DNA from: Planctomycetota bacterium
Lineage (GTDB): Bacteria; Planctomycetota; B15-G4; SIAN01
Reading direction: 5' to 3'
Assembly: GCA_016795285.1 (NCBI GenBank)
Contig: JAEUIC010000029.1
Location: 133,518-197,517, forward strand
Length of the DNA stretch: 64,000 bases
The notes under the pieces are model-generated. The model was not told the DNA's origin and made no database searches. It saw only the letters and a list, made by a program, of their open reading frames with translations. Of the stretch, positions 28,352-51,352 are shown piece after piece (within the stretch, counting starts at the first letter, position 1; the number at the start of each line of letters is the position of its first letter). The translations under genes were made by a program, and so were the position numbers.

Positions 28352-28425
28352 GCCACGTGCGCTCCGCGGGAGAGGTCGCGGCGCAGTGTACGCGCGTCGC
28401 GCATCGCGGAGCGAGACGGCGGCGA

Positions 28426-30380: not shown

Positions 30381-30505
30381 CGCGAACTCCTCCGAGGTCT
30401 TCTCGCCGTTTCGACCGCCCTGCCAAGCGGCGGTTCCGGATGCGACGCCGCGCCGCGCTGCACTGCTCTGCGTCGCGCTGCTCTGCGCCGCGCCGCCTTG
30501 TGCTC

Positions 30506-31342
30506 TCAGCCCTCTTCCTCGTTCACCGCCGAGTCGTTGATGTTCGTCACCGCCCACGCCTCGGCGATCTGGTCGAGCGTGTTCTCGCGGAAGATCAGGA
30601 ACGGCACGCGCGGGATGCGGCGGATCTCCTCCTTGCCGCGGCTGTCGCGCACGACGACGTGGCCGGCGCCGAGCAGCAGCAGCTCGAAGACGTCGGGGTA
30701 CTCGACCGAGAGGCGCTTCGCGCCGCGCGTGATGGCGTCCTCCATGTCGCCGCGGCGGAAGAGGTGCAGCTCGTTGTGGGTGATGCGCCAGCGGTGGTTG
30801 AGGAAGACGTTGATCAGCACGCCGACCAGCCCGACGCCGACCAGCACGCTCATCGCGTGCATGAAGCCCGGCTCGATGCGCGCGTCGAGGCCGGCCAGCA
30901 GGTTCTTCAGCTGGCTCAACACGGGGATCTCGAACGCCTCGTTCAGGTAGAGGCCGCCGACCCAACAGAGCGCCACGAAGAGGAGCCAGCCGATGGCGAG
31001 GTTGCGGCGCACGTCGAAGCCGACCGCGACGAAGCTGGTCATCAAGATCGTGATGTAGACCCAGGTGAGGTTCACCTGCCATTCGGGCTGCCAGTGGAGC
31101 AGCGCAGCGCAGAGCTCGCCGCCGACCACGAGCGGCCAGAAGAGCGTGAAGAGCGGGTAGCTGCCGAACCGCAGCTCGTTGACGCGCGGCGCCATGGTCG
31201 GGCGCGGCGCGGCCGCGGCCTTCGCAGCGGCCGGGGCTGCCGCTGCTGCAGCGGTCGGAGCCGACGCGGCGGCGCTCGAGGTCGAGGCGGAGGACGAGGT
31301 GGGCGGCGGCGGTGCGCCGGCGGACGGGGCAGGATCAGCCAT
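30506..31342 (-). CDS. Integral membrane protein of unknown function, with an Ala/Pro-rich N-terminal tract (start may be at 31195, MAPRVNEL)
   Basis: Four or five hydrophobic helices (FTLFWPLVVGGELCAALL, VYITILMTSFVAVGF, IGWLLFVALCWVGGLYL, VLVGVGLVGVLINVFL). High GC3. Confidence 0.55.
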   Translation of the reverse strand: MADPAPSAGAPPPPTSSSASTSSAAASAPTAAAAAAPAAAKAAAAPRPTMAPRVNELRFGSYPLFTLFWPLVVGGELCAALLHWQPEWQVNLTWVYITILMTSFVAVGFDVRRNLAIGWLLFVALCWVGGLYLNEAFEIPVLSQLKNLLAGLDARIEPGFMHAMSVLVGVGLVGVLINVFLNHRWRITHNELHLFRRGDMEDAITRGAKRLSVEYPDVFELLLLGAGHVVVRDSRGKEEIRRIPRVPFLIFRENTLDQIAEAWAVTNINDSAVNEEEG

Positions 31343-31463
31343 GGTTCCCTACCTCATTGCGAGAGAGCGGTCGTGTGGAGGAGCGGAGTCGGATGCGGTG
31401 CGGTGCGGTGCGGCGCGGCAAACGCGGCCCGAGCCGCGACTACGCCAGCGCCGCGCGCGCCGT

Positions 31464-36653: not shown

Positions 36654-38030
36654 TCAACCGCCCTTCTTCGTGGCCTGCTCCGCGGCCCACGCGGCGATCA
36701 GCTCCGCCTCCTTCTCCGGTGGCAGGCCGGTGCGCAGCAGCGCGGGATCGGGGAGCTGCGGCGCCGGCTGCCCCTTCGCCTTGGCGTCCTCGACCATCTG
36801 CGCGCCGACGCGGCGGCGCCGCTCGACCTCGGTCGGCCACCAGGCGAGGATCGCCTTCAGCGTGTCGTCGAGCGCGCGGAAGCGCAGGCCCGCCTTCTCC
36901 GCGCGGTCGTTGCTCCAGGTGTGGAAGCCGATGTCGTTGCCGACCGGCGCCGACCAGATCGGGAAGGTCCCCGGCGGGATCCCCGCCTTCTCGAGGAAGT
37001 CGGCCGGGATCCACTTGGCGTCGCACGACCCCTTCGGCGCCAGCTGGATGCAGCCGGCGACGACGTCGCCGAAGCGCGCCACGTCGGCCGGCCCGCACGC
37101 GTTGAAGACGCCGGCCGTCGCGTTCTCCACCAGCCCGACCAGGAACTCGGCGAGGTCGCGCACGTCGATCCACTGCATCGGATCGCTCGGCGAGCCCGGC
37201 AGCGCGATGGCGCCGCCCTTCGCGATGCGCACCGGCCAGTAGGTGAAGCGGTCGGTGGGGTCGCCCGGCCCGACGATGTAGCCCGGACGGACCACGGCGC
37301 ACTTGCCGGGGAACGCCGCCTGCGCCACCCGTTCGCACACCGCCTTCAGGCCGCCGTAGAACTCGCCGCCCTGCCCCATCGTCTCGACCGTCTCGTCGGC
37401 GAGCGTCGCCAGCGGTCGATCCTCGTCGCCGTTCACCACGCTGTTGTCGGCGTAGGCGGAGATGCTCGAGATGAAGATGTAGTGGCCGGCGTTTTTCGCC
37501 AGCAGGTCGGCCGACGCCTTCACCATGCGCGGGTAGTAGCCCGAGTTGTCGATGACCGCGTCCCACGTCTTGCCGACCAGCTGCTCGAGCCCCTTCGGCG
37601 AGGCATCGGGGTTCAGCAGCTTGCCGTCGGCGCCGCGCGCATCGTCGGCCGGCAGGTTCGGATCGCGATTGCCATAGAGGTGGGTCACCCCTTCGAAGCC
37701 GAACGGGATGCGCTTCTCGGTGCGGCCGCGGTTGAAGACGGTCACCTCGTGGCCGCGCGCCAGCGCCACCTCGACCGTCTTCGGGCCGATGAAGCCGGTG
37801 CCGCCGAGGATCAGGATCCGCTTCTTCGCCGCCGCGCGACCGCGGACGAGCCCGCCGGCCGTGGCCGCGAAGAGCGGCGCCCCGGTGCTCCCGCTGGCGA
37901 GCCCGCCGAGCGCGAGCGCCGCCGAACCCGCGAGCGCCTGCCCGAGGAAGCGGCGCCGCGAGGGGCGCGCAGGCGACGGCGAGGACGGCGACGCGGAGTG
38001 GGATGCGGCGGCGAGCTTGCGAGTGGTCAC
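36654..38030 (-). CDS. Tat-exported NAD(P)-dependent epimerase/dehydratase-family (SDR-like) protein
   Basis: Twin-arginine signal (SRRRFLGQALAGSAALALG). Rossmann motif ILILGGTGFIGP. Confidence 0.8.
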   Translation of the reverse strand: MTTRKLAAASHSASPSSPSPARPSRRRFLGQALAGSAALALGGLASGSTGAPLFAATAGGLVRGRAAAKKRILILGGTGFIGPKTVEVALARGHEVTVFNRGRTEKRIPFGFEGVTHLYGNRDPNLPADDARGADGKLLNPDASPKGLEQLVGKTWDAVIDNSGYYPRMVKASADLLAKNAGHYIFISSISAYADNSVVNGDEDRPLATLADETVETMGQGGEFYGGLKAVCERVAQAAFPGKCAVVRPGYIVGPGDPTDRFTYWPVRIAKGGAIALPGSPSDPMQWIDVRDLAEFLVGLVENATAGVFNACGPADVARFGDVVAGCIQLAPKGSCDAKWIPADFLEKAGIPPGTFPIWSAPVGNDIGFHTWSNDRAEKAGLRFRALDDTLKAILAWWPTEVERRRRVGAQMVEDAKAKGQPAPQLPDPALLRTGLPPEKEAELIAAWAAEQATKKGG

Positions 38031-38231
38031 GACGAGGCTCCGGAACGGACCGACAAGACGGGTGGCGAGCAGGGATCGGCGCGCCGCGAACCGACGCGGC
38101 GCCGCACGGTACCGCTCTCACGGTACGACAGGGCGCCGCGCGAGTTGCATCGCCGCTGCCGTAACCTCGCGGCGGTGACGGCGCGCGCGACTCGCCGCTG
38201 ATCGCAATGCCACCCTCCGCAGGAGCCTTCC

Positions 38232-39737
38232 ATGTCCCGCTCGCTCTACAGTCTGCTGAAGCGCCGCCGCTCGCCGAAGGTCGATCTCGTGACGCGCCGC
38301 CAATGGCTGGCCAAGGTGGCGGCGGCGGGAGCGGCGCTGCTCGCGGGTGGGCTGGCCGGCGGGCTCGCGAGCGGCTGCGGCTCGCCGCGCGCGCGGCGCG
38401 TCGGCAAGCGGGTGGTCGTGGTGGGCGGCGGCTTCGCCGGCCTCGCGGCTGCCAGCGAGCTGATCGCCCGCGGCTACGACGTGACGCTGCTCGAGGCGCG
38501 CCATCGCGTCGGCGGGCGCGTGCTGTCGTTCCGCGACTTCCCCGCGGGGCGCGTCGTCGAGGGCGGCGGCGAGCTGATCGGCAGCAACCACCCGCTCTGG
38601 AACGCCTACGCGGAGCGGTTCGGCCTCGAGCTCACCGAGATCGTCGAGCCGGAGGAGGCGGAGTTCCCGGTGCTGCTCGACGGCGTGCGGCTCACCAGCG
38701 AGGAGTCGGACGCGCTGTGGGAAGAACTCGATGCAGCGGTGACGACGCTGAACGACGCGGCGCGCGCCATCGATGCCGAGCAGCCGTGGACGAGCCCCGA
38801 TGCGGCGGCGCTCGACGCGCGCTCGACGGCGGAGTGGCTCGCCGGGCTCGAGGTGTCGGCGCGCTGCAAGCGGGCACTGCAAGCGCAGTTCGAGGCCGAC
38901 AACGGCACGCCGATCGAGCGGCAGAGCCTCCTCGCCAACCTCGCGCAGATCAAGGGCGGCGGCGTCGAGAGCTACTGGACCGACAGCGAGACGCACCGCT
39001 GCAAGCCGGGCAACCAGGCGCTGGCGCTCGAGCTGGCGAAGACGGTCGTGGCGGATGGAGCGAGCCGCGTGCGGCTGGACGCGCCGGTGACGCGGATCGA
39101 CCACGGCGGCGCGGTCGCGAAGGTGACGCTCGCCGATGGCAGCGTGCTGGAGGCGGACGACGTCGTGCTGGCGTTGCCGCCCTCGCTCTGGAGCGCGATC
39201 GCCTTCGACGTCGCGCTGCCGGCAGCGCTCTCGGTGCAGATGAGCGTCAACGTGAAGTACCTCGCCGCGGTGAAGCGGCGCTTCTGGGAGGAGGCGGGTC
39301 TGGCGCCCGACGGCCTCACCGACGGGCTGATCGGCTGGACGTGGGAAGCGACCCATCGCCAGGAGGGCGCCGGCGACTTTGTGCTGACCGCCTTCTCGGG
39401 CGCCCGCGGCGCCGAGCAGGCGCGCGCGCTGCCGGCCGCCGGCCGCGACGCCGCCTACGCCGCCGCGCTCGAGCCGCTGCTGCCCGGCTTCACGGCCGAG
39501 TTCGTCGCCGCGCGCTTCATGGATTGGCCCGGCGATCCGCGCACGAAGGCGGGCTACTCGATGCCCGCGCCGGGTCAGCTGACGAGCGCGGGCCCGCTGC
39601 TGCGCGCCGGCCTCGGCAAGCTCCACTTCGCCGGCGAGCACTGCAGCCACGCCTTCGTCGGCTACATGGAGGGCGCGCTCCAATCGGGCGTCGCGGTCGC
39701 CAAGCGCCTCGCGGAGCGGGACGGCGTGGGGAGCTGA
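38232..39737 (+). CDS. Tat-exported flavin-containing amine oxidase (FAD-dependent oxidoreductase)
   Basis: Twin-arginine signal (TRRQWLAKVAAAGAALLAG). FAD dinucleotide-binding motif VVVVGGGFAGLAAASEL. Amine-oxidase-like C-terminus. Confidence 0.85.
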   Translation: MSRSLYSLLKRRRSPKVDLVTRRQWLAKVAAAGAALLAGGLAGGLASGCGSPRARRVGKRVVVVGGGFAGLAAASELIARGYDVTLLEARHRVGGRVLSFRDFPAGRVVEGGGELIGSNHPLWNAYAERFGLELTEIVEPEEAEFPVLLDGVRLTSEESDALWEELDAAVTTLNDAARAIDAEQPWTSPDAAALDARSTAEWLAGLEVSARCKRALQAQFEADNGTPIERQSLLANLAQIKGGGVESYWTDSETHRCKPGNQALALELAKTVVADGASRVRLDAPVTRIDHGGAVAKVTLADGSVLEADDVVLALPPSLWSAIAFDVALPAALSVQMSVNVKYLAAVKRRFWEEAGLAPDGLTDGLIGWTWEATHRQEGAGDFVLTAFSGARGAEQARALPAAGRDAAYAAALEPLLPGFTAEFVAARFMDWPGDPRTKAGYSMPAPGQLTSAGPLLRAGLGKLHFAGEHCSHAFVGYMEGALQSGVAVAKRLAERDGVGS

Positions 39738-39804
39738 GCGAAGGAGACTCCCCCGAGATGTGCGCTGGTCGTGCCGTCGCATCGACGGCCGACCTGGCGC
39801 CTCC

Positions 39805-41219
39805 TCACTCCGGCACCTTCCAGCGGCCGCCCTTGTCGGGGCCGATGCGTTCCAGGCGGCCTGCCTCGCGCAGCTTGCGGACGGCCCGCTCGATGGCACG
39901 CAGTGACTTGCCGAGCTGCGCCGCCACTTCGGGCAACGACAAGCCCGGGTCCGACCGGAGCAGCGACCGGATCGCTTCGGGCGTTTTCACCGGCGTTTTC
40001 ACCGGCGTTTTCACCGGCGCCTTCGGGGCCTTCCTCTGGGGCGCCGCCGCCAACAGGGAGAAGGTCACGACCACCGCGCGATCGCGAATCGACACGACCG
40101 GCGGCGTCAGGCCGCGCTCCTCCATCAGTCGCGCGATCTTGAGCGTGCCGCGGCCCCACGTCTCGATGATCCCGCGCCGATAGAAGGTGCGCGCGATCAT
40201 GGGGTTCCACGGCTTCGACTCGTGTTCGCGGAAGAGCGCCTCGGGCGTCAGGCCGAAGTGCAGCTCGCCGATCGAGATGATCTCGAGCCGATCGTCGTAG
40301 AGCGCGACGCTCACCGAGCCACCGCCGATCGCGTAGTCGCGATGCACGAAGGCGTTGGCGAGCGCCTCGCGCAACGCCTCCACCGGCAAGAGCGGGGTGT
40401 CCTCGCGCTCCATCCGGTCCGGAACGATGCGCCCCCGCACGGGCAACGACTCGATCAGGAAGCGCTCCGCACGGCGCATCAAGGCGAAGGCGTTGCCGTG
40501 GAACTGGCGGTGGTCGAGGAACTCGTCACGCGTCGTCCCTCGGAATCGCGCCACCTTGAGCAGCAGTTGCGGGAACTCGGGCAGGGGCACCTCCTCCGAA
40601 CAGAAGAGCGCCACTGCCGCCCGCGACACCCGATCGCCTTCGACCAGCAGCCCGAGTCCGCGCAGGATCTCGAGCGGCTCACGCGTCCCCGGATCATCGA
40701 TCCGGCCGCGACGGATCGCCTCCTCCAACGTGAGCACCAACTCGCGCCGATCGAGCCGCGTGATGTCGAATCCCGTGGCCGGTCGATTCTCCCAGCGCTC
40801 GGTCGCGTGCATCTCCTCCAGCAGCAACCGCTGGAAGGTCTCGCGCGGCATGACGCGAGTCGTGTTCAGCACCCGTTCGTACGCGACCCCACGGAAGGCG
40901 ATCGGAGCGCGAGGACTGTGCTGGGCGGAGAGCAGCAGCACCTCGCGCCCTCCGCCGATCGCGACGCGTTCCACTGTCGGAAAGAGCGGCGGCTCGAATC
41001 GCTGGACCTCCTGCGGAGCTCTTCGAGGGTGCGTTCGTTGACGATCTGCGCGACGACCTTCCCGGCTGGCGTCACGCCGATCACCACGCGCCCGCCTTCG
41101 CCGTTGGCGAACGCGCACACGGTGCGAAAGGCTCGCTCCTTCTCCGCCGTCGACTTCTTGAACTCGAGCGTCGCCGACTCGCCGGCGGCGGCCAAGTCCG
41201 CGAGTTGATCGGGATTCAC
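39805..41219 (-). pseudogene. Schlafen/AlbA_2-like domain plus HATPase_c_4-like ATP-binding domain plus C-terminal wHTH protein (often annotated as 'RecG-like / putative transcriptional regulator'), interrupted by a frameshift near 41001..41023
   Basis: The N-terminal AlbA_2 signature (ESATLEFKKS...ERAFRTVCAFANGEGGRVVIGVTPAGKVVAQIVNERTLEE) is in ORF 40866..41219. The rest (QEVQRFEPPLFPTVERVAIGGG...IAFRGVAYERV...HATPase-like...wHTH) is in ORF 39805..41118, in a different frame. The switch occurs within gaagagctccgcaggaggtccag. A KAPKAPVKTPVKTPVKTP repeat is present. Confidence 0.6.
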
Positions 41220-41256
41220 GGAACGACGCTCTCGGCCGCGGAGTCGGTGCCCCCGC

Positions 41257-42147
41257 TCATGGCGCGACCGCCTCCGCTTCCTGCAACTCCCTGAGCGTAC
41301 GCCCCTTGGCGTCCTTCCACTCCACGCGCCCGTTGGAGGATCGACCGAGCAGCACCCCTGCCGCGGTCGATGGCGAATTGAACGTGTAGTCCTGGGTCAT
41401 TCGATAACCCGCGCCCGCTGCCTCCAACACCCCTTGCGCCAACAGGGACCGCCGCAGCTCGACGAGGTAGCCGTGGATCGACGCGACCTCGTCCTTCACG
41501 GCCCGCGATCCTGCGCGCACGACGAATCCCGCGCTCCCATCGGCACCGCGCGCCTGGATGCCCTTGGCTTCGAGGAACAGTTCGCGCGACAGGCCGGCGT
41601 CGGCGCTCGGCTCGTCGAACAAGCCCACGCCCACGACCGGCAGGCAGAGCAGCAGGTCACCGAGGAACCCCTCGGCGTCGGCGGCGTCGGCCTCCGAGAG
41701 CGTCGGCAGCTGCGGCTTGTTGCCGTTGTCGAGTTCGGCGCGCTTGGCCGCGCTCGCCAGCGCCACCAGCCGTGCTTCGAGGTACTGCACGTGCGCCTTG
41801 TTGAGGTTCTGGTCCTTGCTGGTGAACAGGCAGGCGTGCGTCCAGAAGTCCTTCAGCTTGGCGTGCTCGACGAGTCGCGACAGCACTGGATCGCCCTCGC
41901 CGACATAGAGCCGTGGCAGCTGTGACGACTCGCCCGGCCCCCACAGGAGGTAGACACCGGTTCGCTTCAACTCGACCCGCGAGCGAACCTCGACGAACTG
42001 CGCGCGCGGGAAGACGAGCCCCTGCCCCGTCCAGTTGGACTTCTCGACGATGCGCAACGCCTCCGGATCGCCCGACGGAAGGAAGATGCGCACGGAGAAG
42101 CCGATGGGGGCGGCCAGTCCTTCGTGCGCCCCTTGCTTTCGAGGCAT
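41257..42147 (-). CDS. GIY-YIG nuclease-family protein with a C-terminal DUF4357-like domain
   Basis: GIY-YIG core (GVYLLWGPGE ... LYVGEGDPVLSRLVEH). The C-terminal region (GFVVRAGSRAVKDEVASIHGYLVELRRSLLAQGVLE...YRMTQDYTFNSPSTAAGVLLGRSSNGRVEWKD) resembles DUF4357 from memory. Start at MPRKQ. Confidence 0.6.
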   Translation of the reverse strand: MPRKQGAHEGLAAPIGFSVRIFLPSGDPEALRIVEKSNWTGQGLVFPRAQFVEVRSRVELKRTGVYLLWGPGESSQLPRLYVGEGDPVLSRLVEHAKLKDFWTHACLFTSKDQNLNKAHVQYLEARLVALASAAKRAELDNGNKPQLPTLSEADAADAEGFLGDLLLCLPVVGVGLFDEPSADAGLSRELFLEAKGIQARGADGSAGFVVRAGSRAVKDEVASIHGYLVELRRSLLAQGVLEAAGAGYRMTQDYTFNSPSTAAGVLLGRSSNGRVEWKDAKGRTLRELQEAEAVAP

Positions 42148-42240
42148 CGTGCACCTCTCCCGTCGTGGCGACCGTTCGGGCACGAACTGTATCAGCGCCG
42201 AACCGCTCGTCGCGCGGCGCCGCGCGCAACGCCGCGCCGC

Positions 42241-43029
42241 TCACGCCGGCTTGCGTGCGACGCGCAAGTGGAGCGGCCAGCGGACGGGGCGCGGGCGCTG
42301 CGGGTCGCCCCACGCGCGCGCCAACTGCGGGGTCAGCGCGACGAGCGGATCGCTGCCGGTGCGGCGGCGCTGCTGCTGCACGGCCGACCAAGTGGCGAGG
42401 TAGCCGAGCAGGCCCGCGAGCGAGAGCTCCTGCTCGATGGCGACGCGCGGCAGAGCGGCCGTGATCTCGGCGGTGATCTCGGCGAAGGGCAGCGCGAGGT
42501 CGCGGTAGCCGTTCATCACCAGCGCGCGCGGCGGCGGCCAATCGGGGGCGAGCGTCCCGTCGTGGAGCTCGCGCACCAGCGCGTCGATCGGCGGCGCGAC
42601 CTCGAGCAGGCTGTAGCACCAGAGCGCCAGCACGCCGCCCGGCGCCAGCACTCGCGCCACCGTCGCGTAGAAGCGCGGCAGATCGAACCAGTGGGCCGCC
42701 TGCGCGACGGCGACGAGATCGAAGGAGGCGTCGGCGAGGTCGCGCGGCTCGCCGTCAGCGTCGTTGGCGAGATGGCGATACGTGACGCGCGGGTGGGGCG
42801 TCGCTTGCGCGAGCTGCTCCGCGCTGACGTCGGTCGCCAGCACGCGCTCGAAGTGGTCGGCGAGCCCGAGCGCCGCCTGCCCGTTGCCGGTGCCGCAGTC
42901 CCACGCCGCTCGCCGCGCCGGCGCGCGCTCCGCCAATGCCGCGAAGAGCGCCGCCGGGTAGCGCGGCCGGAACTCGGCATAGGCGGCCGCGTGGCCGGAG
43001 AAGAGGGAGTCGAAGCTCGGGTTGGCCAT
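42241..43029 (-). CDS. Class I SAM-dependent methyltransferase
   Basis: Motif I AWDCGTGNGQAALGLA. 262 aa. Confidence 0.85.
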   Translation of the reverse strand: MANPSFDSLFSGHAAAYAEFRPRYPAALFAALAERAPARRAAWDCGTGNGQAALGLADHFERVLATDVSAEQLAQATPHPRVTYRHLANDADGEPRDLADASFDLVAVAQAAHWFDLPRFYATVARVLAPGGVLALWCYSLLEVAPPIDALVRELHDGTLAPDWPPPRALVMNGYRDLALPFAEITAEITAALPRVAIEQELSLAGLLGYLATWSAVQQQRRRTGSDPLVALTPQLARAWGDPQRPRPVRWPLHLRVARKPA

Positions 43030-43036
43030 CGCGCCG

Positions 43037-44515
43037 CTACTCCTCGAACTCGACCTGCCCGCGCCGCCACTCGGGCGGCAGCGGCTCGGTGAGGGGGACG
43101 ATCCACGGCGCGGGGGCGAGCGAGCGCTCCACGGCGGCGAGGTCGACGTTCGGATCGATCAGCGGCTGCGCATCGCGGCCGTTCAGCGAGCAGTCGACGA
43201 TGGCGCGGACTTGCGGGCGGCGCGCGGCGCCGGTGGCGGGATCGACGACCGTGTAGCGGCGCGCGAGGTGGTGGGCGTACTGCAGCACCATCTCGGGGCG
43301 ATCGCCCATCTTCTGCGCCTGCCAGTCGGCGAGCTCGGCGCGCGGGTCGACGATTCGCCGCTCGCCGGTGACGGGATCGGTGACGACGAAGTGGGCGCTC
43401 GACGTCTTGCTGCGCAGCTTCATGTGCCACGCGAAGAGGTGCCCCTCCTCGGTCCAGCTGACATTGCCGGGGTAGAGGAAGTGGCGCAGCGGGAAGAGCA
43501 GTTGGTAGGCGAGCCAGAGCGCCACGAGCGCGAGCGTGGCGCGCGCGAGCCGCGGCGGCGCGGCGGTGGCGAACGCGGCGAGCGGCCGCTCGACCGTCGT
43601 CTCGCCCTCGCGTCGCGCGAGCGCCTGGAAGACCCCCGAGTCGTAGCCGAACAGCGCGCGCGCCTCCGCCTGCTCCTGCCGCTGCCAGCCGCCGCGCCAG
43701 CGCGCGAGCCAGCGGCTCGGCCAATCGGGCGCGAAGAAGAGCGTCGTCGCGGCGATCGCCATCCACGGGAAGATGCCGATGTCGAAGAGGCAGGCGTTCA
43801 GCAGGTGGAAGCAGCAGAGCGCCGCGAACATCGCCACGCGCGTGCGCCGCCAGCAGAGGAGCGGCACCGCCAGCAGGTCGAGCAGCAGCCCCGACCAGCT
43901 CATGAACCACGGCGTCGCCGGATGGAGCAGCAGCGGGCCGATCAGCGGCAGCTCGCCGCGCCCCTTGAGCCACTGGCGCAACGGCTCGCCCTGCAGCCAG
44001 TCGCCGTTCACCTTCGCCAGCGCCGCGTAGCCGTAGACGATCAGCAGTTGCGCGCGCAGCAGGAAGAGCGCGAGGGACGGCGCCGGCCGGCGACCGCGCA
44101 GCGCCGCGCGCAGCGACCACTCCCCATCGGTCGGCACCCACGCCAGCAAGAGCAGCAGCAGGAGCACCAGATAGAAGTGGTTCAGGTAGCGCGCCTGCTC
44201 GAGCAGGAAGACCCAGCCGAAGCCGACGAAGAAGAGCGCCGCTGCGGTGCGCGTCCACCAGCCGACGGCGATCAGCGCCGCCAAGACGCCAAGCGCCGCG
44301 AACAGCGCCTGCAACCCCTCGAGCGACGGCCGCTCGACCCACTCGAAGCCGAAGTAGCGGAAGTGGAACGGCGGCGCGACGTAGTGCGCCTCGATCCAGC
44401 CGGCCGAGAAGAAGCGCGTCACCTCCCACAGCAGGATCGCGCCGAACGCGATGCGGAAGAAGGCGAGCGACGCGGCCGGGATCGGCGCGGCCAGCAACCG
44501 GCGTAGTCGTTCCAT
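43037..44515 (-). CDS. HTTM-domain (vitamin K-dependent gamma-carboxylase-like) integral membrane protein
   Basis: N-terminal HTTM signature (ASLAFFRIAFGAILLWEVTRFF...) and multiple TMs. Start at MERLRRLL; the upstream 25 codons in the ORF track lie within a tandem duplication. Confidence 0.7.
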   Translation of the reverse strand: MERLRRLLAAPIPAASLAFFRIAFGAILLWEVTRFFSAGWIEAHYVAPPFHFRYFGFEWVERPSLEGLQALFAALGVLAALIAVGWWTRTAAALFFVGFGWVFLLEQARYLNHFYLVLLLLLLLAWVPTDGEWSLRAALRGRRPAPSLALFLLRAQLLIVYGYAALAKVNGDWLQGEPLRQWLKGRGELPLIGPLLLHPATPWFMSWSGLLLDLLAVPLLCWRRTRVAMFAALCCFHLLNACLFDIGIFPWMAIAATTLFFAPDWPSRWLARWRGGWQRQEQAEARALFGYDSGVFQALARREGETTVERPLAAFATAAPPRLARATLALVALWLAYQLLFPLRHFLYPGNVSWTEEGHLFAWHMKLRSKTSSAHFVVTDPVTGERRIVDPRAELADWQAQKMGDRPEMVLQYAHHLARRYTVVDPATGAARRPQVRAIVDCSLNGRDAQPLIDPNVDLAAVERSLAPAPWIVPLTEPLPPEWRRGQVEFEE

Positions 44516-44593
44516 CGAGCGGACCCATCCGCGGCCGCCGTCGTCGGCGACCGCCACATCTCCGCGGCCGCCGTCGTCGGCGACGGCCATATC

Positions 44594-45229
44594 TCAGCGC
44601 ATCTTCGTCTGGTTCTGCACCTCGACGAGCTTGCCGTGGAGGTCGAGCACGAAGGTGAGCGTCGCTCCCGGCCGCAGCCGCGCCACGCCATCGCCGCCGA
44701 TCCGCTCCTGCGCGTAGCGCACCAGGATGAAGTGCTCCTCGTGGTCGATCGCGTCGAAGCGAAGCGTCCCCGCCTCGGGCGGCAGCGCGAAGAGCTGCGG
44801 GTTGCCTGACAGCACTTGCTCGGTGAAGAGGCGGATCTGCGGATCGCCGAAGACGCCGGGGCCGAGCTGCCGCGACAGCGAGAAGCCCTTGATGGCGATC
44901 AGGCCGGCGATCGGCGCCGCGTCGGGCTCCTGCGACTCGATCTGCTGGTAGTCGCGCAGCGTCCAGTCGACCGCGCCCTTGGCGCCGCCGACTCCGGCCG
45001 CGCTCGAGGAGCCGTCGTCGTCATCGCAGTCGTCGTCGTCGTCGTCCCAGCCGTCGTCGTCGTCGTCGAACCAGCCGTCGTCATCGTCGTCGTAGTAGTC
45101 GTCGTCGCAGCCGGTGCGGACGCTGCAGCTCGCGCCGCCGAGCGCGCCCGCTGCGAGCACGAGGACCGCCACCTTGGCGAGTGTCCGCCACCCGCTGCCG
45201 ATCGCGCCGCCCATCCCACCGCCCATCCC
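44594..45229 (-). CDS. Lipoprotein with an extreme poly-Asp tract
   Basis: Signal and lipobox-like sequence (LVLAAGALGGASCS), then CDDDYYDDDDDGWFDDDDDGWDDDDDDCDDDDGSSS, then a beta-rich domain of about 130 aa. Start is approximate. Confidence 0.5.
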   Translation of the reverse strand, partial: GMGGGMGGAIGSGWRTLAKVAVLVLAAGALGGASCSVRTGCDDDYYDDDDDGWFDDDDDGWDDDDDDCDDDDGSSSAAGVGGAKGAVDWTLRDYQQIESQEPDAAPIAGLIAIKGFSLSRQLGPGVFGDPQIRLFTEQVLSGNPQLFALPPEAGTLRFDAIDHEEHFILVRYAQERIGGDGVARLRPGATLTFVLDLHGKLVEVQNQTKMR

Positions 45230-45455
45230 ACCGCTCGCCACGTCGCGCTCCTCGCCTGCCTCTTCGCGCCCCCGCATCGCCGGGGGCCTCTCCGCCCTCG
45301 GCCGGCCATCAGAGCAACCGAAGGGCCATGCGGTTGCAACCGCCTTGCCCACCGTCGAGCGTGCGCCCCACTGCCCTCGCGCCCGCTCGGAACGCAAGAT
45401 GGCGCGCCCCGCGGCGCTCCGCCGGCCGCCCACCGTCCCAGAAGAGGGAAGCAAG

Positions 45456-48400
45456 ATGCGCAACCGTCTCGTCCGCGTAACGCTCGCCGCCACGACCGTC
45501 GCTGCGTCGTCCGCTACGCAGCTGCTGGCGCAAGCCGCGCCACCGACCGCGCCTCCGGCCAAGCCGCTGCCGAGCTTCACGACGACGCGCCTTTCCGATC
45601 AGTTCCTGTGCGAAGGCGCTTCGTTCGGCGACTTCAACAACGACGGCGACGGCGACGTCGTCTCCGGTCCCTACTGGTACGCGGGGCCCGACTTCAAGCA
45701 GCGCTTCGAGATCGCGGAGCCGACGGCCTACGACCCGCTCGGCTACTCGAAGAACTTCTTCGCCTTCCCCTACGACTTCGATCGCGACGGCTGGCTCGAC
45801 GTCTTCTTCGTCGGCTTCCCCGGCGAGCGGGCGTGGTGGGCGCAGAACCCGAAGGGCGAGGCGCGCCGCTGGATCGAGCACGACGTCTTCCCGATCGTCG
45901 ACAACGAGTCGCCCTGGTTCACCGACGTCACCGGCGACGGCCAGCCCGAGCTCGTCTGCATCAGCAAGGGGGCGTGGGGCTACGCGACCTTCGACGCGAA
46001 GGAACCGACGAAGCCGTGGACCTTCCACGCGATCTCGCCCGACCTCGGGCTGCAGCGCTTCACGCACGGGCTCGGCGTCGGCGACGTGAACGGCGACGGC
46101 CGGCCGGACCTGCTCGAGCGCACCGGCTGGTGGGAACAGCCGAAGTCGCTCGCCGGCGATCCGCTCTGGACCAAGCACGACTTCCCCTTCTCCACCGGCC
46201 ACGGCGGCGCGCAGATGCTGGTGGACGACGTCGACGGCGATGGCGACGCCGACGTCATCTCGAGCCTGAACGCCCACGCGTGGGGCCTCTCCTGGTTCGA
46301 GCAGGTGAAGGACGCTGCGGCCGGCGGCGCGATCACCTTCCTCGAGCACCGCCTGATGAACGAGCCGAGCGAGCCGCACCCCGAGGGGTGCTGCTTCTCC
46401 GAGCTGCACGCGCTGGCGCAGGCCGATGTCGACGGCGACGGGCTGAAGGACTTCGTCACCGGCAAGCGCTTCTGGGCGCACGGGCCGACCGGCTCGCCGG
46501 GCGCGGGTGATCCGGCACTGCTGGTCTGGTGGCAGCTGGTGCGGCGGACCGCGGGCGGCGCGGCGGGCCAGAGCGGCGCGGCGACCTTCGTCCCCCACAC
46601 GATGTATGACGACAGCGGCGTCGGCGTGCAGGTGGTCGCCGGCGACATCAACGGCGACGGCAAGTGCGACGTCGTGGTCGGCAACAAGAAGGGGACGTTC
46701 GTCACGCTGCAGGACGACGAAGTCACCCGGACGAATCGCGCGCTGCAGAAGCGGATCGAGGAGGTGCTGGACGAGAAGAAGCGCGAGATGGACAAGGTGC
46801 GCGGCGGGCTCGCGCCGCAAGCTGCCGCGCCGCAAGCCGCCGCCCCTGCGCGCCGCCATCCGGGCCGCGACGACGGCACGCTGCCGCTCGGCCTCGACGG
46901 CAAGCCGCTCAACAGCGACTTCGAGACGGGCGATCTGCGCGACTGGACGGCCACCGGCACCGCCTTCGAGGGGCAGCCGATCCGCGGCGACTCGCCGGCG
47001 CGCCGCAATCGCGAGTCGAGCCTCCACGAAGGCGACTTCTGGATCGGCGGCTACGAGAAGCACGGCGACGACCCGCAGGGGACGCTGCTCTCGGCGCCGT
47101 TCCGCGTGACGCAGCCGTTCGCCAGCTTCCTGATCGGCGGCGGCCCGCACGCGACCACCGTCGTCGAGCTGCTGCGCTGCGACGACGCCGGCGCGCCGCT
47201 CGACACGCCCCCCTTCTTCCGCTGCTTCGGCGCCGGCTTCGAGTCGATGCAGCCGATCGTCGTCGACCTCGCCCGCGAGCAGGGCAAGACGATCCGCCTC
47301 CGCCTCACCGACGCGCAGGGCGGCCACTGGGGCCACTTGAACTTCGACGACTTCCGCCTCCACGCGAAGCGCCCCGACGTGAAGCGGCCGGCCAACGTCC
47401 CGCTGATCCTCGAGCCCGATCCGCCGATCGCCGACGGCCTCGCGCCGCAGGACGCGGCGAAGGCGATGAGCGTCGCGCCTGGCTTCCAGGTCGACCTGAT
47501 CGCCGCCGAGCCCGACCTCCACCAGCCGATCGCGCTCTGCATCGACGGGAAGGGGCGCCTCTGGGTGGTCGAGGCGCACAGCTACCCGCAGCGCGAACCG
47601 GAGGGCCAGGGCAAGGACCTCGTCGTGGTCTTCGAGGATCGCGACCAGGACGGGCGCTTCGAGACGCGCACCGAGTTCATGAAGGGGCTGAACCTCGTCT
47701 CCGGCCTCGAGGTCGGGTTCGGCGGCGTATTCATCGGCGCGTCGCCGTGGCTCCTCTTCGTGCCCGACGCGAACGACGACCTCGTCCCCGACGGCGAGCC
47801 GCAAGTGCTGCTCGACGGCTGGCACTGGGAGGACACCCACGAGACGCTGAACGCCTTCGCGTGGGGCCCCGACGGCTGGCTCTACGGCTGCCACGGCGTC
47901 TTCACCCACTCGCGCGTCGGCAAGCCGGGCACGCCTGACGACCAGCGCATCCCGTTGAACGCCGCGGTGTGGCGCTTCCATCCGACGCGCCACGACTTCG
48001 AGATCTTCGCGCAGGGCACCAGCAACCCGTGGGGGCTCGACTGGAACGACCACGGCGAGGCGTTCGTCAGCGCCTGCGTGATCCCCCACCTCTTCCACCT
48101 GGTGCCGGGCGGCCGCTACATCCGCCAGGCCGGCAGCCACTTCAATCCCTACACCTACGTCGAGATCGACACGATCGCCGACCACCCGCACTACCCCGGC
48201 AACGACCCGTGGGGTGCCAACGGTCGCAGCCACGCCTTCGGCGGCGGCCACGCCCACTGCGGCGCGCTGATCTACTTGGCCGACGCCTTCCCCGCCGAGT
48301 ACCGCAACTCGATCTTCATGGGGAACATCCACGGCAATCGCGTGAACCGCGACCTGTTGGAACCGCAGGGCTCGGGCTACGTCGGCCACCACGGCCAGGA

Positions 48401-50909
48401 CTTCCTGCTGGCCAACGACAAGTGGTTCCGCCACATCGCGAGCCGCCTCGCCCCCGACGGCTCGGTCTTCATGATCGACTGGTACGACCGGCAGGCGTGC
48501 CACCACACGAACGAGGAGATCTGGAACCGGACCAACGGCCGCATGTACCGCGTGAGCTACGCCGCTCCCGGTGCGCCGCCCGCCGAGCGCCTGCCGGTGA
48601 ACGTCCCGGCGATGGCCGAGGACGCGCTGCTGCGCCTGCAGGCGAGCCCGAACGACTTCTGGGTGCGGCGCGCCCGCGTGGAACTGCAGCAGCGCGGCCT
48701 CTCGCCGCGCGGCGTCGCCACCGCCGAGCAGCTCGCGTCGCTGCACGCCGATCCGACGCGGCGGCTGCGCGGCCTCTGGCTGCTCCACGCCTGCGGCAAG
48801 CTCGCCGAGAGCTTCGCGCTGCAGCGCCTCGCGACCGACGCCGATCCGCACGTGCGCGGCTGGGCCGTGCGCCTGCTGGCCGAGGACAAGTCGCTGTCGC
48901 CGACCGCGCTCGACGCCGTGACCGCCGCCGCGAAGGGCGACGCGTCGCCGATCGTGCGCCGCGAGATCGCCTCGGCGCTGCAGCGCCTGCCGCTCGACGA
49001 CCGCTGGGAGCCGCTCACGGCGCTGCTCGCCCACGGCGAGGACCAGGACGACCGCAACCTGCCGGCGCTCTGCTGGTACGCGCTCGAACCGCTGGTCGGC
49101 TACAAGCCGGTGCGCGTCTTCACGCTGCTGCCCGACATCGCGCTCCGCTCGCTCCACTCGCTGGTGATCCGCCGCGCCGCCGCCGATCCGAAGTGCCACA
49201 TCGCGCTCGCCTCGCTGCTCGCCTCGATGGAGGACGCGAAGGTGCAGCGCATGGTGCTCGAGACGATGCACGGCGAGCTGAAGGAGCAGCGCGGGCTGGC
49301 GACGCCGGCCGGCTGGCCGGCCGCCTACGCGCTCCTCAAGGCGCAACCCGAGACGGCGCGACCGGCGCTGCAGGTGGCGATCGACTTCGGCGACCGCTCG
49401 GCGGTGCCGGAGCTGCTGGCCGCGGCGCAGGATCGCGGCGCCGACGTCGAGTGGCGCAAGGCGGCGCTCGCCGCGCTCGCCCAGCTGAAGGACGAGCGGG
49501 CGGCCGGCCTCGTCGCGAAGCTCGCCGTCGACAAGGCGGTGCGACGCGAGGCGCTGCGCGCTGCTGCGAGCTTCGACGAGCCGACCACGCCGGTCACGCT
49601 GCTCGCGCTCTGGAAGGAGTTCGACGCCGTCGAGCGGCGCGAGGCGATCGACACGCTCACCGCCCGGCCCGCGTGGTCGCGCCTCCTGCTGCTCGCGGTG
49701 GGCGAGGGCAAGGTCGCGCGCGCCGAGCTGCACGCGACCGCGCTGCGCCGCATGCGCGACTTCAAGGACGCGGATCTCGACACGCTGATCGCCGCCCACG
49801 TCGGCCTGGTGCGCGACACGCCGGAGGAGAAGCTGGCGCGCATCGCCGAGCTGAAGAAGGCGCTGACGCCCGACGCCCTGGCGAAGGGTGACCTCGAGCA
49901 CGGCCGCGCGCTCTTCGTCGCGACCTGCATGAAGTGCCACGCGCTGTTCGGCGTCGGCGGCAAGATCGCCCCCGACCTCACCGGCTCGAACCGCGCCGAC
50001 CTCGACTACCTGCTCACCAACGTCATCGACCCGAACCAGGTGATCGGCAAGGACTACCAGGTCACCAACGCGTTCGTGAAGGACGGCCGCATGGTGAGCG
50101 GCATCCTGCTGCGCGAGAACGAGTCGGCGGTGACGCTGCAGGCGGAGAACGAGGTGGTCACGCTCGCGCGCGCCGAGCTGCAGTCGCTGAAGCCGAGCAA
50201 GATCTCGCTGATGCCGGAGGGGCAGCTCGACGCCTTCCCGCCCGAGGCGATCCGCGACCTGATCGCCTACTTGCAGTCGCCGCGCCAGTCGCCGGTGCGC
50301 GCCACGACGGCGAGCCTCCCCTACTTCTTCGACGGCCAGTCGCTCGCCTTCTGGCGCGGCGACTTCGGCCTCTTCCGCGTCGAGCCGGGGGCGGGCGGGC
50401 CGGAGATCGTCGGCCACGCGCCGGCCGGGATCGACCAGAACGCCTTCCTCCTCTCCGACTTCGTGGTGGGCGACTTCGCGTTGACGCTCGAGGTGCGCCT
50501 GGTCGGCGATGCCGGCAACAGCGGCATCCAGGTGCGCAGCGTCCCGGTCGGCGACGACCCGCTGCGCTTCGAGATGAAGGGGTGGCAGTGCGACGTCGGG
50601 CCGGGCTGGTGGGGCAAGCTCTACGAGGAGCTCGGCCGCGCCGTGCTGTCGGATCGCTCGGGCGAGCCGCACGTCGTGAAGGACGGCTGGAACCGCTACG
50701 AGATCGTCGCGACCGGCAGCCGCATCCGCACGCGGCTGAACGGCCACGTCACCACCGACCTCGACGATCCGCAGGGGGCGGCGCGCGGGCAGATCGCGCT
50801 GCAGATCCACTCGGGCGGGCCGACCGAGGTGCGCTTCCGCAAGCTCGAACTCGTGGTCGATCCGCCGGCGCTGCCCGCCGTCGGCGTCGACGTCGCGCCG
50901 CGGCAGTGA
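45456..50909 (+). CDS. Giant multidomain protein: N-terminal FG-GAP/VCBS(ASPIC)-like repeats, then a PVC-type 'membrane-bound dehydrogenase' beta-propeller domain, HEAT repeats, a c-type cytochrome domain, and a C-terminal DUF1080 domain
   Basis: Signal peptide (MRNRLVRVTLAATTVAASSATQLLAQA). FG-GAP-like DxDGDGxxD motifs. Dehydrogenase-like region (LWVVEAHSYPQ...WGPDGWLYGCHG...NPWGLDWNDHGEAF). HEAT-like helical repeats. CMKCH haem-binding motif. C-terminal DUF1080 (GNSGIQVRS ... IALQIHSGGPTEVRFRKLEL). RBS AGAAGAGGGAAG upstream. Confidence 0.85.
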   Translation: MRNRLVRVTLAATTVAASSATQLLAQAAPPTAPPAKPLPSFTTTRLSDQFLCEGASFGDFNNDGDGDVVSGPYWYAGPDFKQRFEIAEPTAYDPLGYSKNFFAFPYDFDRDGWLDVFFVGFPGERAWWAQNPKGEARRWIEHDVFPIVDNESPWFTDVTGDGQPELVCISKGAWGYATFDAKEPTKPWTFHAISPDLGLQRFTHGLGVGDVNGDGRPDLLERTGWWEQPKSLAGDPLWTKHDFPFSTGHGGAQMLVDDVDGDGDADVISSLNAHAWGLSWFEQVKDAAAGGAITFLEHRLMNEPSEPHPEGCCFSELHALAQADVDGDGLKDFVTGKRFWAHGPTGSPGAGDPALLVWWQLVRRTAGGAAGQSGAATFVPHTMYDDSGVGVQVVAGDINGDGKCDVVVGNKKGTFVTLQDDEVTRTNRALQKRIEEVLDEKKREMDKVRGGLAPQAAAPQAAAPARRHPGRDDGTLPLGLDGKPLNSDFETGDLRDWTATGTAFEGQPIRGDSPARRNRESSLHEGDFWIGGYEKHGDDPQGTLLSAPFRVTQPFASFLIGGGPHATTVVELLRCDDAGAPLDTPPFFRCFGAGFESMQPIVVDLAREQGKTIRLRLTDAQGGHWGHLNFDDFRLHAKRPDVKRPANVPLILEPDPPIADGLAPQDAAKAMSVAPGFQVDLIAAEPDLHQPIALCIDGKGRLWVVEAHSYPQREPEGQGKDLVVVFEDRDQDGRFETRTEFMKGLNLVSGLEVGFGGVFIGASPWLLFVPDANDDLVPDGEPQVLLDGWHWEDTHETLNAFAWGPDGWLYGCHGVFTHSRVGKPGTPDDQRIPLNAAVWRFHPTRHDFEIFAQGTSNPWGLDWNDHGEAFVSACVIPHLFHLVPGGRYIRQAGSHFNPYTYVEIDTIADHPHYPGNDPWGANGRSHAFGGGHAHCGALIYLADAFPAEYRNSIFMGNIHGNRVNRDLLEPQGSGYVGHHGQDFLLANDKWFRHIASRLAPDGSVFMIDWYDRQACHHTNEEIWNRTNGRMYRVSYAAPGAPPAERLPVNVPAMAEDALLRLQASPNDFWVRRARVELQQRGLSPRGVATAEQLASLHADPTRRLRGLWLLHACGKLAESFALQRLATDADPHVRGWAVRLLAEDKSLSPTALDAVTAAAKGDASPIVRREIASALQRLPLDDRWEPLTALLAHGEDQDDRNLPALCWYALEPLVGYKPVRVFTLLPDIALRSLHSLVIRRAAADPKCHIALASLLASMEDAKVQRMVLETMHGELKEQRGLATPAGWPAAYALLKAQPETARPALQVAIDFGDRSAVPELLAAAQDRGADVEWRKAALAALAQLKDERAAGLVAKLAVDKAVRREALRAAASFDEPTTPVTLLALWKEFDAVERREAIDTLTARPAWSRLLLLAVGEGKVARAELHATALRRMRDFKDADLDTLIAAHVGLVRDTPEEKLARIAELKKALTPDALAKGDLEHGRALFVATCMKCHALFGVGGKIAPDLTGSNRADLDYLLTNVIDPNQVIGKDYQVTNAFVKDGRMVSGILLRENESAVTLQAENEVVTLARAELQSLKPSKISLMPEGQLDAFPPEAIRDLIAYLQSPRQSPVRATTASLPYFFDGQSLAFWRGDFGLFRVEPGAGGPEIVGHAPAGIDQNAFLLSDFVVGDFALTLEVRLVGDAGNSGIQVRSVPVGDDPLRFEMKGWQCDVGPGWWGKLYEELGRAVLSDRSGEPHVVKDGWNRYEIVATGSRIRTRLNGHVTTDLDDPQGAARGQIALQIHSGGPTEVRFRKLELVVDPPALPAVGVDVAPRQ

Positions 50910-50994
50910 CGCCGCGCGACGCGGCGTGCGCGCGACGCCGCTCGCGAACTATCCTGCCGCGCGTCCTGATCCCGAACCGCATGAGAGGCCCGCG

Positions 50995-51303
50995 ATGATC
51001 GTCCACATGGTGCTGCTCAAGGTGAAGTCGACCGTCCGCAAGCCGAAGCTCGCGAAGGTGATGGAGTCGATCGGCGCGCTCGCCGAGGTGATCCCCGGCA
51101 TCACGTCGTTCAGCTGGGGCCCCTACTCGTCGCCCGAAGGGATGAACAAGGGGTTCAACGTCGGCTTCTGCTCGACCTTCCGCAACGCGAAGGCGCGCGA
51201 CCGCTACCTCACCCACCCGGCGCACGAGAAGGTGAAGCTCGACGTGCTCGAGCTGCTCGACGGCGGCGTCGATGCGGTGATCGCGTTCGACTACGAGGAG
51301 TAG
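50995..51303 (+). CDS. Dabb (stress-responsive alpha/beta-barrel) domain protein
   Basis: About 100 aa. MIVHMVLLKVKS...FSWGPYSSPEGMNKGFNVGFCSTFRNAKARDRYLTHPAHEKV is typical of Dabb. Confidence 0.65.
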   Translation: MIVHMVLLKVKSTVRKPKLAKVMESIGALAEVIPGITSFSWGPYSSPEGMNKGFNVGFCSTFRNAKARDRYLTHPAHEKVKLDVLELLDGGVDAVIAFDYEE

Positions 51304-51317
51304 TGCGGGCGTCGGCG

Positions 51318-51352
51318 GCGGATCGATCCGGGAGCGTTCCGCCGCCGAGCAT
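51318..51352 (+). repeat. REP-like element copy (GATCCGGGAGCGTTCCGCCGCCGAGCATCGCACC) between convergent genes
   Basis: Seen directly. Confidence 0.8.

Follow-up and report, generated by a model that had tools for sequence, protein, structure and literature searches.

The window (the whole stretch of planctomycete DNA that was analysed, 64 kb) contains a small lineage-specific segment with two genes, both on the minus strand, between a flavin amine oxidase gene and a methyltransferase gene (Table 1). The original prediction had placed two same-strand genes in this position, and this holds; the gap between them, given as 38 bp, is 37 nt: gene 2 has its GTG start at 41219, and gene 1 has its stop at 41257. 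The surroundings are metabolic: an amine oxidase, a methyltransferase of the small-molecule type (not a DNA methylase), an HTTM protein, and an epimerase. No Type I restriction-modification (R-M) operon with hsdM, hsdS, and hsdR surrounds the genes, and tblastn with HsdR, HsdM, and HsdS queries found no hsd genes in the 64-kb window (nothing at E<0.1). A remnant of hsdR was sought 3′ of gene 2, where the 65-nt spacer is unlike HsdR N-termini. No defence genes besides the two were found in the 64 kb.

Table 1. Features of the island and its flanking genes (positions in the window)
Feature	Position	Strand	Details
Island (lineage-specific segment)	39740..42220	.	2481 nt, GC 0.686
Gene 1, intact 296-aa GIY-YIG + DUF4357/RAMA endonuclease (predicted), PADLOC PDC-S14 family	41257..42147	-	
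Gene 1 GIY-YIG core	41713..41964	-	residues 62-145, GVY...YVG..R...H...E...N
Gene 1 DUF4357 domain (RAMA fold)	41293..41454	-	
Gene 2 frame A	41016..41219	-	codons 1-68, first half of Schlafen/AlbA_2 domain
Gene 2 Ex4ExK Schlafen motif	41157..41180	-	ESATLEFK (translation)
Frameshift site	41014..41015	-	codon 69 is two nucleotides, one base lost
Gene 2 frame B	39805..41013	-	rest of Schlafen domain, HATPase_c_4, repeat linker, wHTH
Gene 2 HATPase_c_4	40060-40323	-	
Gene 2 wHTH	39856-39966	-	
12-nt tandem repeat x3	39980..40027	-	(VKTP)3, gene 2 linker ahead of wHTH
Left flank, flavin amine oxidase (core genome)	38232..39737	+	Pfam Amino_oxidase E 1.1e-52; GC3 0.94
Right flank, class I SAM methyltransferase (Methyltransf_11)	42241..43029	-	Pfam E 9.8e-16; GC3 0.94

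The GC content of the island is the minimum among all 2481-nt windows of the 64 kb (median 0.7275). GC3 is 0.86 and 0.85 in the two island genes versus 0.94-0.95 in the four nearest flanking genes, with values of 0.81-0.89 also occurring in 4-5 other ORFs of the window. The lower GC and GC3 that had been judged by eye are thus borne out by computation. A close relative (L085) aligns to the window at 91% identity over 38333-39739 and at 87% over 42221-42442, and has 608 unrelated nucleotides between the same junctions in place of the island. It keeps the amine oxidase gene and the 3′ end of the methyltransferase gene. Homologues of gene 1 that are 73-83% identical occur in Steroidobacteraceae, Thermoanaerobaculales, Gemmatimonadota, Bryobacteraceae, and Leptonema, with others in Methanosarcina (62-67% identity), and homologues of gene 2 that are 71-80% identical occur in Fermentibacter, Zoogloeaceae, and others. 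Horizontal acquisition, suggested in the original prediction, is supported because the segment is a GC minimum, the 91%-identical relative has alternative content at the same place, and homologues 75-83% identical are found in distant phyla. At the island edges we found no flanking direct (att-like) or inverted repeats and no integrase, and a search there for promoters, terminators, att-like repeats, and terminal inverted repeats gave nothing above chance.

Gene 1 belongs to PDC-S14, a candidate defence family in PADLOC, whose HMMs match it at E 2.7e-100, 2.1e-89, and 7.2e-77. The best match spans residues 27-305 of an ORF of 308 aa, with four other models of PDC-S14 matching as well. An identical protein record is annotated as a "GIY-YIG nuclease family protein [Planctomycetes bacterium]". 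The gene can be aligned over its full length with its homologues and keeps all conserved residues. An AF2 model from an alignment of 108 diverse representatives has a pLDDT of 95.1; a first model, from a shallow alignment (24 sequences, 72-83% identity), had a pLDDT of 55.9 and was set aside. Gene 1 has the beta-beta-alpha-beta-alpha fold of the GIY-YIG catalytic core, and I-TevI is among its fold matches. Among the 108 representatives (38-66% identity) Y66 and G83 never vary, and at least 90% have G64, V65, Y81, R91, H95, E124, and N141. These supply the GIY...YIG tyrosines and the Arg, His/Tyr, Glu, and Asn that follow them in the superfamily; we take the positions to correspond to residues of I-TevI. 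Pfam PF01541 does not match the window gene at E≤0.01; it matches 21 of 75 genome homologues at E≤1 and 32 of the 108 representatives at E≤0.01 (best 2.1e-5). DUF4357 lies above the Pfam gathering score and has a RAMA-type fold. The GIY-YIG core and DUF4357-like C-terminus proposed originally are correct. PDB chains searched with the gene 1 alignment profile returned nothing, and NCBIfam has no assignment for either gene.

PDC-S14 was predicted as a single-gene candidate by "guilt-by-embedding" (Payne et al. 2024, bioRxiv 10.1101/2024.01.29.577857), and the literature searched contains no anti-phage experiment, characterisation, or mechanism for it. It is a large family (9,280 clusters of 50% identity at E≤1e-3). 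Its members are embedded in Type I R-M operons, as the method demands, unlike the copy in the window. The catalytic fold and residues of gene 1 are shared with R.Eco29kI, with the 6mA-dependent wH-GIY-YIG enzymes Ahi29725I and Apa233I, and with the 5hmC-specific PD-T4-3. In sequence it is not significantly similar to any of these four, and PADLOC does not assign it to PD-T4-3. Gene 1 also shares with GIY-YIG restriction and modification-dependent enzymes the layout of a nuclease and a DNA reader in one polypeptide, but the reader is a wH domain in the wH-GIY-YIG enzymes and DUF4357/RAMA in gene 1. RAMA domains, which occur fused to nucleases, are predicted to read modification, and RAMA/DUF4357 is typically joined to restriction nucleases and methylases; its recognition of modified (6mA) DNA is a prediction (PMC4738411). 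Modification reading by RAMA is unconfirmed biochemically even for MPND according to PMC11037411, which singles out the GIY-YIG-RAMA fusion, to which gene 1 corresponds, as a candidate Type IV enzyme and an untested analogue of the modification-dependent GIY-YIG enzymes.

Gene 2 encodes a Schlafen (AlbA_2) domain, an HATPase_c_4 domain, and a winged helix, the combination originally proposed. SLFN_AlbA_2 matches at E 9e-12, over profile positions 1-59 of 118 only, and the N-terminus can be aligned with intact homologues; HATPase_c_4 (E 4.8e-19) and HTH_24 (E 7.7e-6) are found by Pfam in frame B. The repaired 471-aa protein is 75-80% identical to intact homologues over 100% of its length, and PDB 3lmm matches its HATPase_c_4-wHTH part at E 2.1e-7. 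The linker repeats of the homologues are GKTx, EKTP, or QKTP, in variable number. The gene 2 motif aligns with SESASIEFK of rat Slfn13; across the family its E19 and K21 do not vary, and at least 90% of sequences have E14. The GVDD of Slfn13 aligns with GVTP in gene 2, where T50 and P51 are invariant in the family, and the third acidic residue of the mammalian SLFN13 active site (D248, which rat Slfn13 requires; PMC5862951) is Thr. The Ex4ExK or Ex4(E/D)xK Schlafen motif was defined by Perez Taboada et al. 2026 (PMC13056530), who describe "Slfn-HisKinase-HTH" as 19.2% of 5,930 prokaryotic Schlafens and the second commonest bacterial architecture. Gene 2 shares with it the AlbA_2/Slfn domain, Ex4ExK, a GHKL-like HATPase_c_4, and an HTH, and its family is likewise tied to defence islands and Type I R-M. 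It differs in being frameshifted and in the Thr at the D248 position. The validated pSlfn defenders are the DUF262 and Ig-like fusions, not HisKinase-HTH. RptR, considered as a possible match, turned out to be unrelated to gene 2 (PMC12255303), and in PADLOC the gene showed no more than a weak, non-significant similarity to pAgo-associated models.

Gene 2 is not intact in the window. A frameshift had been predicted at 41001-41023, and alignment with homologues places it at 41014-41015. Intact 471-aa homologues read TLEEL-A-QEF with Ala at codon 69, where the window has two nucleotides in the context CTC|CGCAGG. Programmed -1 frameshifting was rejected, as CTC-CG-CAG offers no slippery heptamer and the downstream AGGAGG corresponds to Gln-Glu-Val codons. 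At the assembly level, gene 2 appears to be inactivated here by a one-base deletion in codon 69. All other conserved family residues are kept across both frames, and any inactivation is therefore recent. The same retention could also be read as a sequencing or consensus error in a gene that the organism carries intact and active, and the source is a metagenome-assembled genome, in which single-base indels can occur. We consider such an error unlikely: the site is no homopolymer, an independent Logan assembly of SRR12144677 carries the same loss (100% identity over 14,112 nt), and pseudogenes are common in these families, with 6 of 80 gene 1 homologues disrupted. The frameshift may reflect decay of a toxic system, as had been suggested. 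As a gauge of assembly quality, other frameshifts were sought in the window; overlapping same-strand coding-like ORFs occur at 26.9-29.5 kb and 29.7-31.3 kb and have no Pfam matches.

Relatives of both genes are found in Type I R-M operons, in line with the expectation that the two families recur near restriction-modification genes. In 49 of 80 loci the gene 1 homologue has HsdR, HsdM, or HsdS within 6 kb, and in 31 none is nearby. The nearest upstream gene is HsdS in 11 of 74 loci and the nearest downstream gene is HsdR in 12 of 75. All of the closest gene 1 homologues (80-83% identity) sit between hsdS and hsdR with 4-nt overlaps. In the gene 2 family, three of eight contexts place the gene directly 5′ of hsdR and overlapping it; the closest relatives are single cargo between hsdS and hsdR, and some members stand alone, far from R-M genes. 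The same slot holds many unrelated cargo genes, among them DarTG, PrrC, TgvAB, RhuM, and DUF1016. Relatives of both genes share a position with PrrC (EcoprrI), DarTG2, and TgvAB (PMC12707154, PMC12255303, PMC11411939), although PrrC, DarTG, and TgvAB have no sequence relationship to gene 1 or gene 2. PrrC-style guarding cannot operate here because the window copies lack a host R-M system.

Homing endonucleases of the free-standing GIY-YIG type are well established, and with I-TevI among the fold matches, gene 1 could be a selfish homing-type enzyme. The highly consistent hsdS-hsdR position of its relatives, with 4-nt overlaps 5′ of hsdR, and their 73-83% identity across phyla would then be the result of homing or hitch-hiking. 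This seems improbable to us. Many unrelated cargo genes share the position, which identifies the slot itself as the hotspot; the 31 loci lacking Type I R-M genes and the missing hsd target in the window also argue against homing, as does the usual fusion of RAMA/DUF4357 to restriction nucleases and methylases (PMC4738411).

The position of some gene 2 relatives, directly upstream of hsdR and overlapping it, could also suit a transcriptional regulator of hsdR or of neighbouring cargo (the COG2865 annotation) in place of an RNase effector. The C-terminal wHTH and the absence of the D248 equivalent are consistent with this reading, and the HisKinase-fused Schlafens assayed in E. coli failed to protect against the phage panel used (PMC13056530). 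Against it, the Ex4ExK motif is conserved across the family, some relatives are alone and distant from R-M genes, and a nuclease role has been demonstrated for Schlafens of other bacterial architectures (PMC13056530; PMC13462974). We regard a purely regulatory family as rather unlikely and prefer a nuclease role.

The two genes had been proposed to form a module, and the family contexts do not bear this out. An AlbA_2/HATPase_c_4 gene is the nearest neighbour in about 6 of 80 gene 1 loci, in variable order, and a DUF4357 gene is a neighbour in one of eight gene 2 contexts; the closest relatives are single genes between hsdS and hsdR. One two-component system, a nuclease with a Schlafen sensor or regulator moving as a cassette, would account for a pair in Candidatus Fermentibacter daniensis (L121/L122), in which a DUF4357 gene (72% identity to gene 1) immediately precedes an AlbA_2 gene (71% identity to gene 2), in the order of the window, with a 4-nt stop/start overlap and without Type I R-M. 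The neighbour count is also far above random adjacency. On the other side, the families are apart in 74 of 80 gene 1 loci and seven of eight gene 2 contexts, the gene 2 homologue comes first in one locus (L079), other cargo (e.g., DUF1016/YhcG) is found beside gene 1 homologues about as often as AlbA_2 genes are, and PADLOC treats PDC-S14 as a single-gene candidate. A two-component system is accordingly doubtful in our judgement. The translationally coupled, same-order Fermentibacter pair hints at a mobile two-gene cassette with DNA-cutting and RNA-cutting arms, in which the Schlafen might sense or regulate and which could move out of the hsdS-hsdR slot and function with no Type I enzyme, and we give such a cassette equally little credence. 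If it were real, the frameshift in the window could reflect counter-selection of a toxic partner. The original view that the pairing is not a named system does not stand for the genes taken singly, since gene 1 is PDC-S14 and gene 2 is Slfn-HisKinase-HTH; the defence association of both does.

The segment 39740-42220 is probably a small, horizontally acquired defence islet with two independent single-gene candidate determinants, orphaned from a Type I operon. Its two genes are new members of candidate defence families already described, and one is a pseudogene; they do not make a new two-gene system. The domains and folds, the limits of the island, its signature of transfer, the frameshift, and the surroundings of both families are shown by the data, and from these we infer what the proteins do biochemically and that they act against phage. 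Gene 1 would be a stand-alone GIY-YIG endonuclease joined to a C-terminal RAMA-fold DUF4357, which is predicted to bind DNA, might read a base modification, and may direct GIY-YIG cutting of foreign DNA in a Type IV or restriction-like manner. Gene 2 has an Ex4ExK nuclease domain at its N-terminus, fused to a winged helix and to a GHKL/HisKinase-like domain of the nucleotide-binding kind. Its intact relatives may be infection-activated RNases (tRNases); tRNA cleavage is the defence mode of bacterial Schlafens (PMC13056530). Elsewhere both genes are typically cargo between hsdS and hsdR, and here they are orphaned.

The islet is one planctomycete example of two widespread, already catalogued candidate defence families and matters little alone. 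The PDC-S14 family gains a clean fold-level assignment, GIY-YIG with a RAMA-fold DUF4357. Genes that are cargo of the hsdS-hsdR slot also travel and persist without a restriction system, which argues for autonomous action and not for PrrC-like guarding of a Type I enzyme.

The segment carrying the two genes was predicted to be lower in GC and GC3 than its flanks and to be horizontally acquired, and both predictions hold. GC content is 0.68-0.70 here versus 0.72-0.75 around it (500-nt windows), and at the island's own length of 2481 nt no window of the 64 kb falls below the 0.686 of positions 39740-42220 (median 0.7275). GC3 is 0.86 in gene 1 (GIY-YIG and DUF4357/RAMA nuclease) and 0.85 in gene 2 (frameshifted Schlafen/AlbA_2 ATPase), versus 0.94-0.95 in the adjoining genes; comparably low values also occur in a few ORFs elsewhere in the window. 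Very distant phyla have gene 1 homologues of 73-83% identity, and Methanosarcina has homologues of 62-67%; similarity of this order points strongly to horizontal transfer. The metagenome contig L085, which comes from a close relative, matches the window at 91% nucleotide identity over 38333-39739 and 87% over 42221-42442, with 608 unrelated nt in place of the island (1412-2019 of SXGT01842408.1; a hydrophobic ORF of ~176 aa is predicted from a TTG at ~1454 to a stop at 1984). Because the same flanks enclose unrelated sequence there, the island is a lineage-specific segment, bounded by junctions at 39739/39740 and 42220/42221. A search around it detected no integrase, no tRNA and no flanking repeats. 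This interval, bordered by the amine oxidase and methyltransferase genes, is possibly a hotspot for integration or otherwise variable in content.

Features of the island and its surroundings in window coordinates
Feature	Position	Strand
Overlapping same-strand ORF pairs	26894-29532 and 29703-31348	-
Flavin amine oxidase, left neighbour of island	38232-39737	+
Gene 2, second frame	41013 to stop at 39805	-
Gene 2, tandem repeat in linker	39980-40027	
Gene 2, first frame	GTG start at 41219 to 41016	-
Gene 1, 296 aa	42147 to 41257	-
Methyltransf_11 protein, right neighbour of island	42241-43029	-
HTTM / vitamin K-dependent gamma-carboxylase-like protein	43037-44590	-
Aspartate-rich predicted protein	44594-45580	-
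FG-GAP/HEAT/3-keto-disaccharide-hydrolase protein, 1,931 aa	45114-50909	

Gene 2 starts 37 nt downstream of gene 1. Type I R-M genes are absent from the window, and the remaining neighbours of the two genes are metabolic. Directly downstream of the methyltransferase is the HTTM protein gene (HTTM E 1.5e-72, VKGC lumenal domain E 6.5e-42). Next to the FG-GAP/HEAT protein is a predicted protein in which one stretch is extremely rich in aspartate (…DDDYYDDDDDGWFDDDDDGWDDDDDDCDDDDG…). The ORF pairs have a coding-like GC3 signal that changes frame and no Pfam match in any member; they may represent overlapping genes or additional frameshifts.

The gene 1 protein has an identical database entry, 'GIY-YIG nuclease family protein [Planctomycetes bacterium]', located on a contig of 276,749 bp. 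Its predicted DUF4357-like C-terminus is matched directly by Pfam (E 6.6e-21). The predicted GIY-YIG core, for which the window protein itself is below Pfam significance, is assigned because PF01541 is matched by 32 of 108 diverse family representatives (best 2.1e-5) and G64-V65-Y66, Y81-x-G83, R91, H95, E124 and N141 are conserved among them. All 108 match DUF4357 and 22 match RAMA (best 8.9e-7), a predicted m6A-discriminating domain found fused to restriction nucleases (PMC4738411). Fusions of DUF4357 to GIY-YIG, T5orf172, GmrSD and McrB were recorded previously (PMC4619093, PMC5714182, PMC11090510). This is a very large family, with 9,280 clusters (50% identity) when E<=1e-3 is allowed and 1,696 when the limit is E<=1e-30. 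PADLOC identifies gene 1 as PDC-S14 (E 2.7e-100), one of the 'phage defence candidates' (PDC), a set drawn from genes that sit inside BREX, DISARM or Type I R-M loci (10.1101/2024.01.29.577857); one paper reports that PDC-S14 overlaps GAO_29 (PMC10855318). We found no experimental characterization of PDC-S14 in the literature searched. The DUF4357/RAMA-like module also occurs in other candidate defence proteins, since residues 205-300 (window 41257-41535) match two further PADLOC models, DUF3780 (E 2.7e-15, over the model's C-terminal part) and PDC-S57 (E 2e-7). Frameshifts or stop codons disrupt 6 of 80 genome copies of the gene (L043, L048, L056, L057, L068 and L075), so pseudogenization is common in this family as well.

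The AlbA_2, HATPase_c_4 and wHTH domains expected in gene 2 are all recovered by Pfam: the first frame matches SLFN_AlbA_2 (E 9e-12, limited to profile positions 1-59 of 118), and the second matches HATPase_c_4 (E 4.8e-19) and HTH_24 (E 7.7e-6). Its frameshift is likewise confirmed. Codon 69 appears to have lost one base, because intact homologues have TLEEL-A-QEFQGFEPP where the window reads CTC-CG-CAG; with one base put back, the 471-aa protein is 75-80% identical to intact proteins over 100% of its length. Sequencing error is the alternative explanation. The site is not a homopolymer, and L134, a Logan assembly contig from run SRR12144677, is 100% identical to window 37234-51345. Since it shares the frameshift site, the lesion is, at assembly level, not one assembler's artefact. 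The linker just ahead of the wHTH contains a 12-nt tandem repeat (GGCGTTTTCACC x3, + strand) encoding (VKTP)3; homologues have similar tetrapeptide repeats (GKTx, EKTP, QKTP) that differ in sequence and copy number, a pattern suggesting that the linker of these Schlafens varies and is prone to slippage.

The N-terminal domain of gene 2 contains ESATLEFK, an instance of the Ex4ExK motif that defines Schlafen nucleases. Fusion of 'HisKinase' and HTH is the second commonest prokaryotic Schlafen architecture (19.2% of 5,930 proteins), and defence by tRNA cleavage was demonstrated for bacterial Schlafens with other fusions (PMC13056530). Rat Slfn13 requires a third acidic residue, D248 (PMC5862951), whereas the gene 2 family has an invariant Thr at the aligned position. 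The sole solved relative is the uncharacterized 3lmm, and PADLOC does not recognize gene 2. It probably encoded a sensor-coupled Schlafen RNase that no longer functions in this genome; a rival reading makes it a regulator.

The original prediction treated the two genes as a paired module, and this is not borne out. When 80 genome loci with a gene 1 homologue were searched by tblastn using gene 2 as query, one had a good match as neighbour (L079, 58% identity, genes in the opposite order) and a few others had distant or partial matches. A Type I subunit lies within 6 kb in at least 49 of these 80 loci. By Pfam scan, the nearest upstream neighbour is HsdS in 11 of 74 loci and HsdM in 6, and the nearest downstream neighbour is HsdR in 12 of 75; AlbA_2/HATPase_c_4 occupies these positions in 2-3 loci per side, about as often as other cargo such as DUF1016/YhcG. 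The closest homologues (P0003, P0006, P0012 and L051, 80-83% identity) are all arranged hsdS-[gene]-hsdR with 4-nt overlaps and without gene 2. Gene 2 homologues lie directly 5' of hsdR in three of eight contexts and follow a DUF4357 gene in one; the remainder have mixed or non-defence surroundings. A functional pair is a rival reading. The exception among these contexts is Candidatus Fermentibacter daniensis, where homologues of gene 1 (72% identity) and gene 2 (71%) overlap by 4 nt in the same order as in the window and no Type I system is present. Taken together, members of both families live in the hsdS-hsdR cargo slot and in defence islands but are not obligate partners; on present evidence the pairing is incidental. 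Two further Type I loci were noted: in L081:4019-7437 a single operon has two different AlbA_2/HATPase_c_4 genes (661 and 478 aa), one after the other, directly before hsdR, and L127:6952-10560 encodes a 1,202-aa HsdR with a Peptidase_S24 (LexA-like) match beyond the usual domains, an unusual fusion for a Type I restriction subunit.

Two autonomous single-gene determinants are the best-supported interpretation. The analysis establishes the folds, motifs, genomic contexts, acquisition and frameshift, whereas substrate, trigger and anti-phage effect are steps that we infer. Gene 1 would be a restriction-like endonuclease whose RAMA-fold domain binds DNA, possibly modified, and whose GIY-YIG domain cuts; it is proposed to act like wH-GIY-YIG or PD-T4-3 enzymes, although it belongs to neither family. 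Less probably, it could be a selfish homing-type endonuclease. Both genes are new members of candidate families that were already known. Of most use beyond this locus is that the large PDC-S14 family can be confidently assigned GIY-YIG and RAMA folds.
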